Shown: positions 2,956 to 33,428, counted from the stretch's first letter. The stretch is DNA of 64,000 bases from Myxococcales bacterium (GCA_012513515.1 JAAZCA010000029.1:105812-169811); one strand, 5' to 3'. The notes: generated from the letters alone by a model not told the origin. Numbers and translations are program-made.

Positions 2956-4161
2956 TTACTCTATTATTTCCGCGACCACTCCGGCACCGACTGTGCGTCC
3001 ACCCTCGCGAACTGCGAAGCGGAGCTCTTTCTCCATGGCGATCGGCGTAATGAGCTCTATCTCTGCCGTGACGTTATCGCCGGGCATGACCATCTCTACG
3101 CTTTCCGGGAGCTGAAGAACGCCGGTCACGTCGGTCGTCCTGAAGTAGAACTGTGGACGATACCCTTTAAAGAACGGGGTGTGTCTTCCACCCTCTTCCT
3201 TCGTGAGGACGTAGATCTCTGCTTTAAATTTTTTGTGCGGGGTGATTGAACCCGGCTTTGATATGACCTGGCCTCTTTCAACTTCGTCCCTCTTCGTTCC
3301 GCGGAGGAGGAGACCGACGTTGTCACCTGCCCTTCCTTCGTCGAGAATTTTCCTGAACATTTCGACGCCAGTGACGATCGTCTTCTGCGTGTCGCGCAAA
3401 CCGACGATTTCGATTTCTTCGCCAGTCTTGACCATACCTCTTTCGACCCTGCCGGTGACGACTGTTCCGCGCCCGGAGATGCTGAAGACATCTTCGATAG
3501 GCATGAGGAACGGCTTGTCGATGGCCCTCTGCGGTTCCGGAATATAGCTGTCGAGAGCAGCGAGGAGCTTCAAGATGGATTCAGAACCGGTCTCAGATGT
3601 GTCGCCTTTCAGGGCATTGATCGCGCTGCCGCGGATTATCGGAGTGTCATCCCCTGGAAAGTTGTACTTGGTAAGGAGTTCTCTGACTTCGAGTTCGACC
3701 AAGTCGAGGAGCTCCGGATCATCAACCACGTCCACCTTGTTGAGGAAGACGACGATATAAGGGACGCCGACCTGCCTGGCTAGGAGGATATGCTCGCGGG
3801 TCTGAGGCATCGGACCGTCCGCTGCGCTGACGACGAGAATCGCGCCGTCCATCTGCGCTGCACCGGTGATCATGTTCTTGACGTAATCAGCATGGCCTGG
3901 GCAATCGACGTGCGCATAGTGGCGGTTTTCACTCTGATACTCCACGTGCGATGTCGCGATCGTGAGAATCTTGGTATCGTCGCGGCGGCCCTGGGATTCA
4001 GATGCCTTTGCAACTTCGTCATACGGGACGTAGGTCGAAAGACCTTTGTCTGCGCAGACCTTCGTGATCGCGGCTGTAAGAGTCGTCTTGCCGTGATCGA
4101 TGTGACCAATCGTTCCTACGTTAACGTGCGGTTTAGTTCTCTCAAATTTCTCCTTCGACAT
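2956..4161 (-). CDS. tuf: elongation factor Tu
   Basis: 401 aa. [33 protein letters not shown], with the DCPGHADY and NKVD motifs. Confidence 0.98.
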
Positions 4162-4334
4162 ATTCCCTCCCGTATGAAGTATTTTTATCGTTTCAAAAAA
4201 ACAGATTCTATATCTGAACGATGTCTGCGCATCGATTGACTAGCTCAAGCCGAGAATCCACACCATCGAAAATTCCGGAACGAAGGATGTGAACCTCCAG
4301 GCGACCATTCGCCCGAGCTCGATCTCGAATCCTG

Positions 4335-4407
4335 AGCCGAGAGCGGGAATCGAACCCGCGACCTCATGCTTACCATGCATGTGCTCTACCGACTGAGCTA
4401 TCTCGGC
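4335..4407 (-). tRNA. tRNA-Thr (anticodon GGT)
   Basis: Reverse complement GCCGAGATAGCTCAGTCGGTAGAGCACATGCATGGTAAGCATGAGGTCGCGGGTTCGATTCCCGCTCTCGGCT. Anticodon loop is ATGGTAA. Confidence 0.88.
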
Positions 4408-4416
4408 AACTTGAGT

Positions 4417-4455
4417 GGGATGCGGGCTCCTAACCCGCGACCCTCAGCTTGCCCC
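4417..4455 (-). pseudogene. tRNA-Gly 3-prime-half remnant
   Basis: Reverse complement CAAGCTGAGGGTCGCGGGTTAGGAGCCCGCATCCCAC matches the intact tRNA-Gly from anticodon position 36 onward. The T-loop is degenerate (TTAGGAG) and the acceptor stem is imperfect. No 5-prime half is present. Confidence 0.55.
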
Positions 4456-4543
4456 GATTCGAGATGATTTTTCATTTTTAAAAAAAATCATCTGTCGAAC
4501 CGAGAATCCCGCCCAGCCTTTCACCCGCCATCGGAAGAATCGG

Positions 4544-4615
4544 AGCGGGAGACGGGTTTCGAACCCGCGACCCTCAGCTTGGAAGGCTGATGCTCTACCG
4601 CTGAGCTACTCCCGC
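4544..4615 (-). tRNA. tRNA-Gly (anticodon TCC)
   Basis: Reverse complement GCGGGAGTAGCTCAGCGGTAGAGCATCAGCCTTCCAAGCTGAGGGTCGCGGGTTCGAAACCCGTCTCCCGCT. Anticodon loop is CTTCCAA. Confidence 0.88.
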
Positions 4616-4677
4616 TCAGGTTCCTCCAACTTCGGGGTCCTCGACGCGACAGACATTTTTCATTCTGGAAACCGTGC

Positions 4678-4720
4678 CGCGTCGGGGGAAGGCTGACGTT
4701 CTACCGCTGAGCTACTCCCG
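4678..4720 (-). pseudogene. tRNA-Gly 5-prime-half remnant
   Basis: Reverse complement GCGGGAGTAGCTCAGCGGTAGAACGTCAGCCTTCC matches the intact tRNA-Gly from position 1 through the anticodon TCC, then diverges. No T-arm follows. Confidence 0.55.
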
Positions 4721-4801
4721 CGACAATTCTTCAAAGAAAAATTGTCTTCCCGTTTTTGTTCTTCATTTTCCCAAAGAACTGAAAAACGAACATGCAACAT
4801 G

Positions 4802-4884
4802 TGGAGAGGGGAGGATTCGAACCTCCGAAGGCTAATGCCGGCAGATTTACAGTCTGCTCCCTTTGACCGCTCGGGAACCCCTCC
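4802..4884 (-). tRNA. tRNA-Tyr (anticodon GTA), long variable arm
   Basis: Reverse complement GGAGGGGTTCCCGAGCGGTCAAAGGGAGCAGACTGTAAATCTGCCGGCATTAGCCTTCGGAGGTTCGAATCCTCCCCTCTCCA. Near-identical architecture to E. coli tyrT. Confidence 0.85.
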
Positions 4885-4896
4885 CCCGTGACTTTG

Positions 4897-4969
4897 AGCC
4901 GACGGCCGGACTTGAACCGGCGACCTGCTGATTACAAATCAGCAGCTCTACCAACTGAGCTACGTCGGC
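4897..4969 (-). tRNA. tRNA-Thr (anticodon TGT)
   Basis: Reverse complement GCCGACGTAGCTCAGTTGGTAGAGCTGCTGATTTGTAATCAGCAGGTCGCCGGTTCAAGTCCGGCCGTCGGCT. Confidence 0.88.
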
Positions 4970-5245
4970 AAAACCTCAAGCTCGCCGATTCCGCCGATAA
5001 AAACCGTTCGGAATTTTGATAAACCCGTCATAAAAAAGCCAAGACATAGATTAACAAAGAGCAAAACTCCAAATACAGATGCAGAAAAACATGAAACAAA
5101 CCCATCAAAAACGAATACAAAAATCCGTTTCCGATGCATCATCAAACGTATCACTGGAATCTTGCGAACAGCAAGCCGCCGCAAAAGTCGGGGCTTTCTA
5201 GGTGAGATCCCCAGTTTTGTCAAGGGGTTTTGCCCCTTTGGAACG

Positions 5246-6007
5246 CTATTTGCTAGGGCCCTCCAAGAGACGCTGTCTTGATATTTCTGACATTATTATA
5301 GCAGCAGCGGCAGAGGCGTTGAATGAGTCGATTTTCCCCCTCATGGGTATCGCAATCAGGTGGTCACAGCTCTCCCTGACCAGCCTCCTCATCCCTCTCC
5401 CCTCACTTCCCATAACAAATGCCAAGTTTTCACCTCTAAAATCAAGCGAGTATAGGTTTTGCCCCGCGTCCCCCTCGGCCCCGAATACCCAAAAACCTTT
5501 ATCCTTTAAATTTTTAATTTCCCTAACAAGATTAGTAACTTGTGCTATTTTAGAATGCTCAGTAGCCCCAGCCGATGCCTTGACCACGGAAGCAGTTACG
5601 GCCGCCGAATTGTCCTTGGGAATTATAACCCCGGAGAGACCGAGGAGATGCGCGCTCCTTACTATCGATCCAAGATTCTGGGGGTCGGTTATGCCATCGA
5701 GAATCGCTAACAATGAACAGCGATCGCTGACCTCCTCGCAGGCCAAGAGCTCGGAGATATCGACATAGGGATAGGGGCTAACCTTGGCTATGATCCCCTG
5801 ATGTTTTTTCCCTTCAGCCATGGAATCGATTTCATCACTTTGCGCAGTACGCAGCTTTATGTGGCTTCCAGATATAATCCCCTCAAGGCGCGTCAGAGAA
5901 GAATCTTTCTTCCCAGCGGCGATTATGACCTCGCGCACCTCCCTCCTCCCGGCTTTGATAAGTTCGCAGACGGGATTACATCCGTATATAATTTCATCCT
6001 TGCTCAT
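5246..6007 (-). CDS. rlmB: 23S rRNA (guanosine-2-prime-O)-methyltransferase, SpoU/TrmH family (RlmB-like)
   Basis: SpoU motifs LLAILDGITDPQNLGSIVRSA and AFVMGSEGRGM. Start taken at the internal MSKDEIIYG. Confidence 0.75.
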   Translation of the reverse strand: MSKDEIIYGCNPVCELIKAGRREVREVIIAAGKKDSSLTRLEGIISGSHIKLRTAQSDEIDSMAEGKKHQGIIAKVSPYPYVDISELLACEEVSDRCSLLAILDGITDPQNLGSIVRSAHLLGLSGVIIPKDNSAAVTASVVKASAGATEHSKIAQVTNLVREIKNLKDKGFWVFGAEGDAGQNLYSLDFRGENLAFVMGSEGRGMRRLVRESCDHLIAIPMRGKIDSFNASAAAAIIMSEISRQRLLEGPSK

Positions 6008-6083
6008 CGCCACGCTCTCCGGACCCAATAAAGAAATGGGGATCATGCAAAGATGACCCCCATTTTAAAATTCTCAAGCCACA

Positions 6084-8153
6084 CTATTTCTTTTCCTCTT
6101 TTTCCCTCTTAGCCTCATCGATCACCTTCTGCGCGATGTGCGACGGAACAACATCATAGTGCGAGAAGGACATCGAATAAGTTCCTGCGCCGCTGGTTAT
6201 CGATTTGAGACTGGCTGAATACTGATAGAGTTCGGCCATCGGCACCTTCGCCTTTATAATTCCGTTGTCCATCCCTGAAACGCGCCCGCGCCTCTGGCTG
6301 ATATCGCTCGACAGATCGCCCATATTTTCCTGCGGAGCATAGACCTCAAGATCCACCACCGGTTCGAGAAGTTGCGGCGCAGAATCCTGCATAGCGAGTT
6401 TGAAGGCAAGGGAACCGGCGATCTGGAAGGACATATCCGAGGAGTCGACATCGTGATAGGAGCCGTCGAAGACGGTCACCTTCAAATCTACCACCGGGTA
6501 ACCGGCCAGCACTCCCTTCTGCATAGACTCGCGAACACCCTTCTCGATGGCTGGGATGTATTTCCCAGGTATGGAACCACCGACGATCGCATCGACGAAT
6601 TCAAACCCTCCACCCGGAGGGAGGGGTTCGAGCTTAAGCCAGCAATCGCCGTATTGACCATGACCGCCGCTCTGCTTTTTGTGTTTGCCCTGCTTCTCGG
6701 ACTTCTTCGTAATTTTCTCCCTGTATGGAATATGTGGCTTCTGAATCTCCACATCGACCCCGTACCTCTCTTGTAATCTTTTGATCATCACATCGATCTG
6801 GACCTCCCCCATCCCGGTTACTATCGTCTCAGAAAATTCCTTGTCCACGTGATAGGTAAATGTGGGATCTATTTCGGTCAGCTTGGAAAGGCCGATGCCT
6901 AGCTTGTCCTGATCCTTCTTGCTTTTCGGCACAACCGCCAGAGGAACCACCGGAGTCGGGAATACCACCTGCCTCGCTGTCAGCGGATGAGCCTTCGATG
7001 TAAATGTGTCGTTGATGTGCGTATTCTTCAACTTGGCAACCGCCGCGATATCTCCGGCGCTGACAGAGGAGAGCTCTATCCTTTCTTTGCCGCGCATCGT
7101 TATAAGGTGACCCAGCCTCTCCCCGCTGGACTGGTTTACGTTAAAAACATCGTCACCGGCGTTGATCGAGCCTGAATAGACGCGGAAGAAGAATATATCT
7201 CCTATTCCTGGATCTGAAGTGGTTTTGAAGACATGAGCGACCAAGGGGCCCTTTGGATCGGCAGTGACATCCGTCTCGCTCTTGCCGTCCTTGTCCAAGA
7301 CCCTGATGGCTGGCATATCCGCAGGCGAAGGAAAATATTTTATTACGGCGTTGAGAAGAGCATCGACGCCGATGTTGTTGTAGCCGCTGGCGATAAATAT
7401 CGGGTTGAGGTTTCCGGAAGCGATACCCTTTGCACAACCGCGTATGATTTCCTCGTCGGACAACTCGCCCGATTCCAGATATTTTTCAAGAAGCGACTCA
7501 TCGTTCTCAGCTACAGCCTCGATAAGCACTGTTCTCTTCGATTTGGCCTCCTCGACCATGTCGGCGGGGATATCGGCCTCCTTCAAAGAACCTCCCTCAT
7601 TTATATAAGCCTTCATGCCGAGCAGATCCACCACGCCCTTGAATTGCGCCTTCCCGCCGATAGCAATCTGAAACTCCGGGGCGGAAGATTCGAGGTTCTC
7701 GCGAATCGAAGCAACCGCTGCGGCCACATCGGCATGTTCCCCGTCGGCCTTGTTGATGAGAAATGCCCGACCGCGGCCCGTCTCTTTCATGTAATTGTAG
7801 AGTCTGATCGCAGGAATTTCCACTCCACTTGACGCATCGACAACGAACAAGGATACATCGCACACGCTCATGGCGCCGACCGCCTCGCCTATGAAATCTG
7901 AGTAGCCTGGGGTATCGAGGAGATTTATTTTGAACTGCTTCCACTCAATCGGAGTGATCTTTGAAATTATGGTCTGGTGACGTTCAACTTCTATTGGATC
8001 GTAATCTATAACAGAGTTTCCTTCCACAACCCTTCCCATCCTACCTGTAGCGCCTGATGAAAAAAGCGCCGCTTCCACGAAAGAGGTCTTGCCAACCCCC
8101 TTCGCACCGATCAACGCGATATTTCTGATGTTCGAAGTCCCGTAAGTCTTCAC
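6084..8153 (-). CDS. elongation factor G family GTPase (EF-G paralog)
   Basis: 689 aa. G1 is GAKGVGKT, G3 is DTPGY, G4 is NKAD. It has EF-G domain II-V-like length. The switch-II His of DxxGH is Tyr here. Confidence 0.8.
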   Translation of the reverse strand: MKTYGTSNIRNIALIGAKGVGKTSFVEAALFSSGATGRMGRVVEGNSVIDYDPIEVERHQTIISKITPIEWKQFKINLLDTPGYSDFIGEAVGAMSVCDVSLFVVDASSGVEIPAIRLYNYMKETGRGRAFLINKADGEHADVAAAVASIRENLESSAPEFQIAIGGKAQFKGVVDLLGMKAYINEGGSLKEADIPADMVEEAKSKRTVLIEAVAENDESLLEKYLESGELSDEEIIRGCAKGIASGNLNPIFIASGYNNIGVDALLNAVIKYFPSPADMPAIRVLDKDGKSETDVTADPKGPLVAHVFKTTSDPGIGDIFFFRVYSGSINAGDDVFNVNQSSGERLGHLITMRGKERIELSSVSAGDIAAVAKLKNTHINDTFTSKAHPLTARQVVFPTPVVPLAVVPKSKKDQDKLGIGLSKLTEIDPTFTYHVDKEFSETIVTGMGEVQIDVMIKRLQERYGVDVEIQKPHIPYREKITKKSEKQGKHKKQSGGHGQYGDCWLKLEPLPPGGGFEFVDAIVGGSIPGKYIPAIEKGVRESMQKGVLAGYPVVDLKVTVFDGSYHDVDSSDMSFQIAGSLAFKLAMQDSAPQLLEPVVDLEVYAPQENMGDLSSDISQRRGRVSGMDNGIIKAKVPMAELYQYSASLKSITSGAGTYSMSFSHYDVVPSHIAQKVIDEAKREKEEKK

Positions 8154-32475: not shown

Positions 32476-33375
32476 CTAGGCCCTAGGATGAAATTTCTTA
32501 TAGAGCTCCTGTAGGTGCCTTCTGGAAAGATGGGTGTAAATCTGCGTTGTCGCGATATCGACATGCCCCAGCATCATCTGTACGACGCGCAGGTCGGCGC
32601 CGCGTTCGATTAGATGGGTCGCAAATGAATGGCGAAGCATATGCGGGGTAACGTTTATCTTTATCCCCGCCTTTCTCGCATAAAATTTGATGATCTCCCA
32701 TAGGCGCTGCCTGGATATCCTGCCGCCGCGCCGCGAAAGAAAGAGTTCGTCAACAACCATCCCGCGGGCCAGCTTGCCTCTCCCCTCTTCCAAGTATAAC
32801 GCAATCGCCGCAATTGCCTCCCCCCCCATCGGGACCACCCTCTCCTTCGAACCCTTGCCGAAGGGCATGCAGTATCCCTGCTGAAGATTGATCCTGTCGG
32901 TGGTAAGCCCCGACATTTCGGAGATCCGAAGCCCGGAGGCATAGAAAAGTTCTAAAATCGCGTGATCGCGAACTCCGAGCGTCGTCTTCACATCGGGCTG
33001 GCGAAGCATCAGGTCCACCTGCTCGATTGAAAGAAACTTCGGAAGCTTCTTCCACCTGCCGGGAAATTCGATCTGCGCGGTAGGATCGGTGGATATTATT
33101 TTTTCACGGGTCATGAAGGAAAAGAAACCACGCAAAACAACTAGGTACCTGGTGATGCTTCTGGTGCCGATTCCACCCTCGGCAAGGGAGGCGAGAAAGG
33201 AGAGCGCCAAATCCTCTCCAATCTCTGCGACCTCACCTATTTTCCGTTTCTCAGCGTATTCGGCGAAGGATCTCAAATCATGCGAGTAGGCCTCGACCGA
33301 ATTTTTTGCGAGCTGCCTCTCCACCCTGAGATGGTTGAGATAAAAATCGATTCTTGAATAGAGATCGGACTGCAT
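32476..33375 (-). CDS. xerD: tyrosine site-specific recombinase XerD/XerC
   Basis: N-terminal SAM-like core-binding domain. Catalytic RHSFATHLIE...LGHVDIATTQIYTH (R, H, R, Y). Confidence 0.85.
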   Translation of the reverse strand: MQSDLYSRIDFYLNHLRVERQLAKNSVEAYSHDLRSFAEYAEKRKIGEVAEIGEDLALSFLASLAEGGIGTRSITRYLVVLRGFFSFMTREKIISTDPTAQIEFPGRWKKLPKFLSIEQVDLMLRQPDVKTTLGVRDHAILELFYASGLRISEMSGLTTDRINLQQGYCMPFGKGSKERVVPMGGEAIAAIALYLEEGRGKLARGMVVDELFLSRRGGRISRQRLWEIIKFYARKAGIKINVTPHMLRHSFATHLIERGADLRVVQMMLGHVDIATTQIYTHLSRRHLQELYKKFHPRA

Positions 33376-33428
33376 TTGTCCTCTATTTCCCCTTGTACGC
33401 AACATGATCTTAATTTATCCTGCTCCGC

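Follow-up and report, generated by a model that had tools for sequence, protein, structure and literature searches.

An intact tRNA-Gly gene nested between complementary halves of a broken tRNA-Gly gene, and a hairpin family at the breaks, in a Myxococcales bacterium

The tRNA-tufB cluster and the broken glyT gene

We analyzed a stretch of 64,000 nucleotides of DNA from a Myxococcales bacterium, which is called the window at its full length throughout. On its minus strand, upstream of tufB, thrU and tyrU are followed by the 5' half of a glyT gene, 235 nt of DNA, the 3' half of a glyT gene, and thrT, and an intact tRNA-Gly(UCC) gene lies inside the 235 nt separating both halves (Table 1). The EF-Tu gene is followed by tRNA-Trp, secE, nusG, and rplKAJ, and a tRNA cluster upstream of tufB is widely conserved. 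Directly upstream of the tRNA cluster lie genes for a SpoU/TrmH-type RNA methyltransferase (5246-6046) and a second EF-G-like GTPase (689 aa; 6084-8153). This arrangement is kept in the sister species L091, and the methylase is also present in L093 and L096.

Table 1. Features of the tRNA-tufB cluster in the window
Feature	Position	Strand	Basis and remarks
thrU, tRNA-Thr(TGT)	4896..4969	-	ARAGORN; Rfam tRNA, 74.4 bits; first gene of the tRNA-tufB cluster
tyrU, tRNA-Tyr(GTA)	4801..4884	-	ARAGORN, Rfam
glyT 5' half, canonical 1-36, ending with anticodon TCC	4687..4721	-	33/35 identity to the intact gene; pseudogene fragment
Junction hairpin U1, CCCGACGCG...CGCGTCG-A-GGA	4638..4686	-	Covariance model R1, 53.3 bits, E=3e-11; family alignment
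x1, 22-nt 5' flank of intact glyT	4616..4637	-	MFE fold; 4.5% divergence from L091
glyT, intact tRNA-Gly(TCC), functional-looking	4542..4615	-	ARAGORN; Rfam, 72.7 bits; same sequence in L091
x2, 3' flank of intact glyT, partner strand of x1	4507..4541	-	MFE fold; 8.3% divergence from L091
Junction hairpin U3, TTCTCGGTTCGACAGATGATTTTTT...AAAAATCATCTCGAATCGGGG	4452..4506	-	Model R1, 60.5 bits, E=4e-13
glyT 3' half, canonical 36-73, degenerate T-loop	4414..4451	-	Direct comparison; pseudogene fragment
thrT, tRNA-Thr(GGT)	4334..4407	-	ARAGORN, Rfam; starts 6 nt past the glyT 3' half
tufB (EF-Tu)	2956..4161	-	Downstream gene of the cluster

An initial annotation of this DNA had described an intact tRNA-Gly(TCC) between a 5' half and a 3' half that are both broken at the anticodon, and direct comparison bore this out. 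The 5' piece (4721..4687) agrees with positions 1 to 35 of the linear tRNA sequence (canonical 1-36) at 33 of 35 sites. The 3' piece (4451..4414), which runs from the last anticodon base to the discriminator, agrees at 33 of 40, without a mismatch in its first 20 nt. With an overlap of one C, the two are complementary pieces of a former tRNA-Gly. Although the description given earlier was right, its coordinates (4678-4720 and 4417-4455) were off by a few bases and are corrected here to 4687-4721 and 4414-4451. The degenerate T-loop that it had reported in the 3' half is likewise present, reading TTAGGAG instead of TTCGAAA.

tRNA-finding software had been proposed as a check on these fragments. 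ARAGORN and Rfam found one intact tRNA-Gly(TCC) at 4542-4615 and did not call the fragments separately; the halves joined in silico, however, folded as a Gly(TCC) cloverleaf in ARAGORN at a relaxed threshold, with two acceptor mismatches, one D-stem mismatch, and a noncanonical T-loop. In BLAST within the 1-kb flank, the fragments gave E-values of 4e-12 and 6e-8, which makes a chance resemblance untenable. As a background control for partial copies, we used 167 tRNAs from 136 sources, covering all fetched loci, and among these, flanking partial copies occurred only in the group of loci linked by the hairpins described below and at one unrelated locus.

The fragments resemble the intact gene exactly up to the mature tRNA ends, beyond which their flanks are unrelated to its own; co-duplicated flanks, the mark of a decayed tandem tRNA array, are absent in the window. 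We rejected the idea that decayed remains of the missing halves are hidden in the spacers, which hold no residue of them (local alignment against 2000 shuffles, p=0.27-0.97). Thus, the halves are without partners, as had been noted, and simple decay of a tandem array is inadequate as an explanation, as had also been argued.

The sister species L091 (GCA_040767565.1), whose EF-Tu is 99% identical to that of the window, has the same layout, which allowed the parts to be compared. The intact gene differs at 0 of 73 positions, and divergence rises from 4.5% in x1 and 8.3% in x2 to 14% in U1 and 14.5% in U3, and then to 16.7% in the 5' half and 21% in the 3' half. In L091, the outer anticodon is mutated to CCT, the 3' half retains the canonical TTCGAAA loop, and the halves do not overlap. 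Because the intact gene is unchanged while the halves have diverged by 17 to 21%, the halves are nonfunctional, unconstrained pseudogene pieces, and the shared layout indicates that they predate the split of the two lineages and were present in their common ancestor. Comparison with related genomes had been suggested as a further check. In L093 and L094 (EF-Tu identity of 85%) and in L096, one Gly gene lies 7 to 14 nt after tRNA-Tyr and there are no fragments; since these more distant relatives have a single Gly gene, the nested structure is derived.

Some further variation was seen around this cluster. An 8-nt indel follows tRNA-Tyr: the window carries a tandem CATGTTG-CATGTTCG repeat at 4786-4800, and L091 has a single copy (L091:1366-1372). 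At the same site L093 reads CATTTTGT, with the Gly gene directly after. Two EF-Tu genes that are only about 90% identical are kept in the group, as seen in L090 and L092 (both GCA_964626525.1), L088, and L089; tufA (399 aa) lies in a fusA-tufA-rpsJ context, and tufB (401 aa) lies behind the tRNA cluster. In the well-studied enterobacteria, gene conversion holds both EF-Tu copies nearly identical. Five EF-Tu relatives proved to be the tufA paralogue in the fusA-tufA-rpsJ context, without the tRNA cluster. Two apparently close EF-Tu relatives (P0010 and P0028) were uninformative owing to internal duplications: these proteins of 461 to 491 aa contain an internal tandem repeat of about 60 to 90 residues of domain 1/2, and the repeats are probably artefacts of assembly or strain merging rather than real variants. 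The EF-Tu scan of genome contigs also listed at least 80 unrelated loci with identities of 79% or less, which served as a background control.

A hairpin family at tRNA breakpoints

Long spacer hairpins had been reported at CGACGCG...CGCGTCG and GATGATTTTT...AAAAATCATC, and we confirmed both, within 4686-4638 and 4506-4452, respectively. These two hairpins, U1 and U3, sit exactly at the two glyT breaks. The foot of U1 pairs additionally with the CC of the broken anticodon, and in the MFE fold an imperfect x1/x2 pairing encloses the intact tRNA. Eight hairpins from the window, L091, and two metagenomic loci (L097 and L116) can be aligned as a single family with a length of about 53 nt and the consensus TCC-CGAYYCGRC-AYGATTTTTT-loop-AAAAAATCRT-GYCGRRTCG-A-GGA. 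The family stem comprises 22 pairs, with 90% of cells paired and 6 pairs changed on both sides, whereas pairing was 57% or less in register-shift controls in which the 3' partner was slid by 1 to 3 columns. U1 of L116 is 88% identical to U3 of L091 over 51 nt, and a hairpin arm of L097 matches the L091 hairpin at 22 of 23 positions.

We searched for further members in several ways. In the 64-kb window, the covariance model R1 recovered U3 (60.5 bits) and U1 (53.3 bits) alone, the next-ranked candidate scoring 12.9 bits, and it had no matches in 620 kb of unrelated loci. A pattern derived from the arm similarity of L097 and L091 was used to scan a metagenome collection. Of its 27 matches, 25 were coding-sequence coincidences. 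The remaining two were real hairpins; one of these, L123, is once more the L097 contig, so that L116 was the single new locus. Two hairpin patterns gave none or only chance matches in viral contigs, and BLAST against phages and plasmids matched only the tRNA part, leaving the hairpins without a match. Permissive Rfam searches (E<=10) over 4200-5100 returned only tRNAs and chance hairpin matches, and the same was true for L116 and L097. The hairpins are conserved junction modules of one previously undescribed family, which is tied to broken tRNA copies in at least three lineages and was seen exclusively at their breakpoints.

In Rfam, Y RNA-like (YrlA) matches stayed below threshold, with E-values of 1.8 and 8.3 and with 16.7 and 14.4 bits against a gathering score of 69. 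A derivation of the hairpin arm from a T-arm was suggested by its resemblance to GGTTCGA, but only the window copy shows this and the family consensus does not, and we regard it as chance. The protein matches to a spurious ORF spanning the locus were all ORFs antisense to tRNA clusters.

The two metagenomic loci differ in design. In L097 (EF-Tu identity of 87%), a tRNA-Thr(GGU) copy is broken between positions 30 and 31 by a 106-nt insert consisting of two hairpins without cargo. The interrupted copy is partial (positions 1-44): after the insert come Thr positions 31-44, 15 nt, and then an intact Thr(GGU) gene. The insert is absent from L093, the sister lineage of L097 (tuf identity of 90%). 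L116 repeats the nested design around an intact tRNA-Gly(CCC) with an insert of roughly 380 nt, in the order Gly 1-17, U hairpin, GC hairpins, Gly 18-38, a 29-bp stem enclosing the intact Gly(CCC), further GC hairpins, U hairpin, and Gly 55-72 (the final 18 nt of the 72-nt gene). Positions 39-54 of its outer tRNA are missing, and the extra piece 18-38 lies inside. Across the loci, the breaks fall at 17/18, 30/31, 36/37, and 38/39, and these sites share no target sequence, apart from a weak TC^CA at two of them. The ends of the inserted units read YCCCGA...TCGGGR, like inverted repeats, in the window, L097, and L116; those of the window are CCCCGA...TCGGGG, and those of the L097 insert are TCCCG...CGGGA.

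Two side observations concern these loci. In the L097 lineage, the inter-tRNA spacers are repeated and highly structured: those upstream of tRNA-Gly and of the interrupted tRNA-Thr (L097:335-608) are paralogous modules of about 100 nt, each with a GATTT..AAATC hairpin, a CCTCNATTNTC...GAGAATNGAGG hairpin, and a GAAnATTTGC..GCAAnnTTTC motif. In L116, a gene for an intein-containing RtcB RNA ligase of the tRNA-splicing ligase family (909 aa; Pfam RtcB, 7.6e-151; Intein_splicing) lies directly upstream of the nested tRNA-Gly(CCC), at L116:39-2768. A tblastn search for RtcB in the window was negative, and the position of the ligase gene next to a split tRNA in L116 may be a coincidence.

A metagenome-assembled genome of Dokdonella sp. 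(L010:1462-1999; NZ_JADJQH010000002.1) contains an intact tRNA-Tyr(GTA) between two interrupted Tyr copies, both of which have the same structured insert of 74 to 80 nt between T-loop positions 58 and 59. In the first of these copies, which is made up of 1-68, the insert, and 69-79, the anticodon is GAA, and about 50 nt of the spacer upstream are shared with the intact copy. The locus shows the same theme as a tandem array, with an unrelated insert.

Origin of the nested structure

Nested insertion, which the initial annotation had given as an alternative, fits these data best. We tentatively propose that a nonautonomous, hairpin-ended cassette carrying its own glyT inserted into the anticodon of the resident glyT. 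A single insertion would have split the resident glyT(UCC) of a thrU-tyrU-glyT-thrT-tufB cluster between canonical positions 36 and 37. The inserted cassette, now 235 bp, would have consisted of U1, the imperfect x1/x2 stem holding the complete glyT, and U3. The inner glyT would then have taken over the function (break-and-replace), and the outer halves would have turned neutral and decayed. The enzyme involved might have been an abutted-end transposase, a serine recombinase, or a hairpin-recognizing enzyme acting in trans, all of which are compatible with the junctions. One such event would be the simplest account of the structure, and the cassette would be, or have been, mobile. The inverted-repeat ends, together with the cargo-less L097 insert and the larger, reworked L116 insert, make these small units look like elements rather than leftovers; judged from its sequence, the L097 insert looks like the same ends without cargo, and L116 looks like a larger, more reworked version.

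Several observations speak against this proposal. It is based on only three independent loci, all of them metagenomic, and no autonomous copy, transposase, or pair of empty and filled alleles was found. The intact tRNA of L097 lies beside the interrupted copy and not inside it, which, with the missing and extra pieces of L116, means that extra events are needed in both. Break positions differ, without a common target apart from the weak TC^CA, and no target-site duplication was present at any junction in the window, L097, or L116. Besides, the interrupted copies of L010 flank an intact tRNA in an apparent tandem array with a co-duplicated spacer, and further copies, as would be usual for a MITE or REP family, are absent from the 64 kb of the window. 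A bolder proposal is conceivable but doubtful: the hairpin modules may be still-active miniature mobile cassettes that target tRNA loops, survive because one version brings a replacement tRNA gene within the loop of one of its hairpins, as a gene-free and addiction-like break-and-replace element, and are mobilized in trans. If they are, the near identity of the L097 and L116 fragments to the intact genes would reflect recent and recurrent events.

Integrase crossover in the anticodon loop was the specific cause named in the initial annotation, which saw the locus as a scar of mobile-element traffic at glyT. This interpretation holds only in part, and its integrase component is not supported. 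A tyrosine-integrase event leaves a shared core at both junctions. An identical core is absent here, as the left junction reads CTTCC/CCCGA and the right junction reads TCGGGG/CAAG, where the window has an overlap of 1 nt or less and L091 has none; with neither a target duplication nor a shared core, the junctions speak against a tyrosine integrase. Nor was the tRNA rebuilt at one junction with a single displaced fragment: both halves are displaced, and the intact gene has no part in either junction. The statement that no integrase or cargo is left holds, since only 235 nt separate the halves and Pfam searches of all 51 ORFs of at least 120 aa and the neighbors identified only housekeeping genes, without any gene of an integrase, a phage, or an island. 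Within the 64 kb, tyrosine recombinases are represented by a single Phage_integrase protein at 32476-33405, 28 kb from glyT, which is a XerD equivalog (TIGR02225; 349.6 bits against a cut-off of 329.6) beside scpA/scpB and trpS. Its position amid housekeeping genes indicates that it is a chromosome-maintenance gene and not an island integrase.

It is thus unlikely that the locus is a decayed integrase-borne island, which would have integrated into the anticodon loop without rebuilding the gene, supplied its own tRNA-Gly, and lost everything except this tRNA and its ends. The same hairpin ends bound a cargo-less insert of 106 nt and another insert of about 380 nt in other lineages and other tRNAs, so that three independent decays, in three tRNA genes, to the same hairpin ends would be needed, and viral contigs, phages, and plasmids match the tRNA only. 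Such an origin would nevertheless have precedents: an order of 5' half, element with a same-isotype tRNA, and 3' half is known to be produced by this mechanism (PMC10865867), integrated elements commonly leave tRNA gene fragments, as reviewed previously (PMC9897764), and the inner tRNA would be held by selection.

We consider it improbable that the structure arose by a tandem glyT triplication, in which both flanking copies, or their ancestor before duplication, received the hairpin at one and the same anticodon position and the flanking copies later lost their inner halves by deletion. This would demand two deletions that each start at the hairpin boundary and leave exactly complementary halves, and the same again in L116; the window itself has neither a co-duplicated spacer nor a trace of the missing halves. 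However, the tRNA-Tyr array of Dokdonella (interrupted, intact, interrupted, with the same 74- to 80-nt insert and a duplicated spacer) indicates that tandem duplication can give rise to mixed arrays of this kind, and L097, in which the interrupted Thr copy stands beside the intact one and not around it, fits this as well.

A role as a functional RNA scaffold seems more improbable still. The halves and hairpins would be kept to aid the processing of the inner pre-tRNA, for example, as RNase III sites, or to regulate the tRNA-tufB operon. The loci do reach much more stable folds than shuffled sequences (z=-6.1 for the window, -16.8 for L116, and -7.3 for L097), but palindromes of mobile origin fold well for trivial reasons. 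Compensatory changes maintain the hairpin stems, and on the sense strand there is a mild surplus of G-U cells (11) over A-C cells (5). The outer stems would be made by the tRNA halves, however, and these change fastest (17 to 21%) and are losing their pairing. A promoter and terminator scan found that the hairpins are no intrinsic terminators and have no sigma-70-like promoter, so that the unit is uninterrupted, but no Rfam family matches it and sister lineages do without the structure.

An assembly artefact, that is, repeated tRNA k-mers mis-joined in a metagenome-assembled genome, is hardly credible, since six long contigs, which come from different samples and assemblers, are 100% identical over the 1084-nt SpoU-tuf spacer and the diverged L091 shares the layout, although several short contigs end within the repeated tRNA-Gly segments, as expected for a true repeat, and the 5' end of one of them differs. 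In this short contig (L003:1-76; ENA ERZ27257450 k141_637486), the 5' half, U1, and x1 are replaced by a tRNA-Tyr end and, after a spacer of 27 nt, the 5' part of a tRNA-Gly whose D-loop differs (AGTTGGCTA), beyond which it is the same as the window through U3 and the 3' half. This end, which is not found in the six long contigs, is either a chimeric contig end or a rare recombinant strain.

Comparison with known elements and implications

We compared the insertion relic with several kinds of known elements. Canonical tRNA-targeting integrative elements were reportedly treated by Williams in 2002; on canonical integration the tRNA gene is rebuilt, one fragment is displaced, and an identity block is repeated at both ends. 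As at such att sites, a partial copy adjoins an intact tRNA here, and the anticodon loop, where the gene is broken, is a classical sublocation for integrases, but both halves are displaced and nothing is repeated.

Among palindromic elements, MITEs, REP/BIME clusters, Rickettsia palindromic elements, and CIMEs have many dispersed copies, mostly in intergenic positions. The modules resemble them in being short and gene-less, with long hairpins (a 22-bp stem with 90% of cells paired and 6 compensatory pairs) and inverted-repeat-like ends, in tandem clusters and sometimes inside genes. They differ in that they were seen only at breakpoints of tRNA copies, lack a target duplication, and include one module with a tRNA gene; within the 64 kb, there are only the two junction copies. 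For an IS200/IS605-derived hairpin element (PATE), the conserved left target of 4 to 5 nt is absent, the left flanks being CTTC(C), CATC, AATG, and CAAG.

Interrupted tRNA genes offer another comparison. Fujishima, Sugahara, Randau, and colleagues reportedly described archaeal tRNA introns at noncanonical positions, with a proposed transposition among tRNA genes, as well as split tRNAs. The mark of archaeal-type tRNA introns is a 3-nt bulge, a 4-bp helix, and a 3-nt bulge at the exon-intron junctions, together with a splicing endonuclease in the host. As in archaea, related short structured inserts occur here at varied positions (D-loop, anticodon stem and loop) of different tRNAs, cleanly between two bases. 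In contrast, the host is a bacterium, the interrupted copies are incomplete or decaying, and the intact copy appears to be the working one; in the predicted folds, the stems are continuous except for one bulged A at the hairpin foot, and they show no bulge-helix-bulge motif. Bacterial group I introns occur in the anticodon loops of tRNA-Leu, fMet, Arg, and Ile. They too interrupt a tRNA at or next to the anticodon by 200 to 250 nt, but the insert in the window contains a complete tRNA and AT-tipped palindromes and has no P1-P9 fold, and the group I intron model had no match at E<=10 in Rfam over 4200-5100, or in L116 and L097.

The closest parallel in arrangement is the tRNA-dependent lysogeny of actinobacteriophages (Guerrero-Bustamante and Hatfull 2024), in which an essential tRNA gene is not rebuilt and the phage must carry the same tRNA; this break-and-replace has been proven experimentally in mycobacteriophages and involves a prophage of 40 to 60 kb, a tyrosine integrase, and a common core of about 10 bp (PMC10865867). 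The same arrangement is found here: host tRNA halves stand on either side of the element, covering 1-36 and 36-73, and the inner gene likewise has the anticodon TCC. The window departs from it in having 235 bp, no integrase, no core repeat, and palindromic hairpin ends. In our view, the insertion relic combines features of known kinds, namely, tRNA-targeting insertion, break-and-replace, and a palindromic nonautonomous element, in a small sample of three loci.

If the structure were merely a scar of tandem duplication or of a lost island, it would be an ordinary pseudogene remnant of local interest. In any case, split and nested tRNA copies confuse tRNA annotation and break metagenome assemblies at a highly conserved locus. 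The locus is also a bacterial counterpart of the still unexplained way in which short structured inserts have spread through the tRNA genes of archaea. If the cassette insertion proposed above is right, the recently described strategy of disrupting an essential tRNA gene and bringing one's own would extend from 50-kb prophages to a gene-free insert of a few hundred base pairs, and the new hairpin family would mark such insertions.
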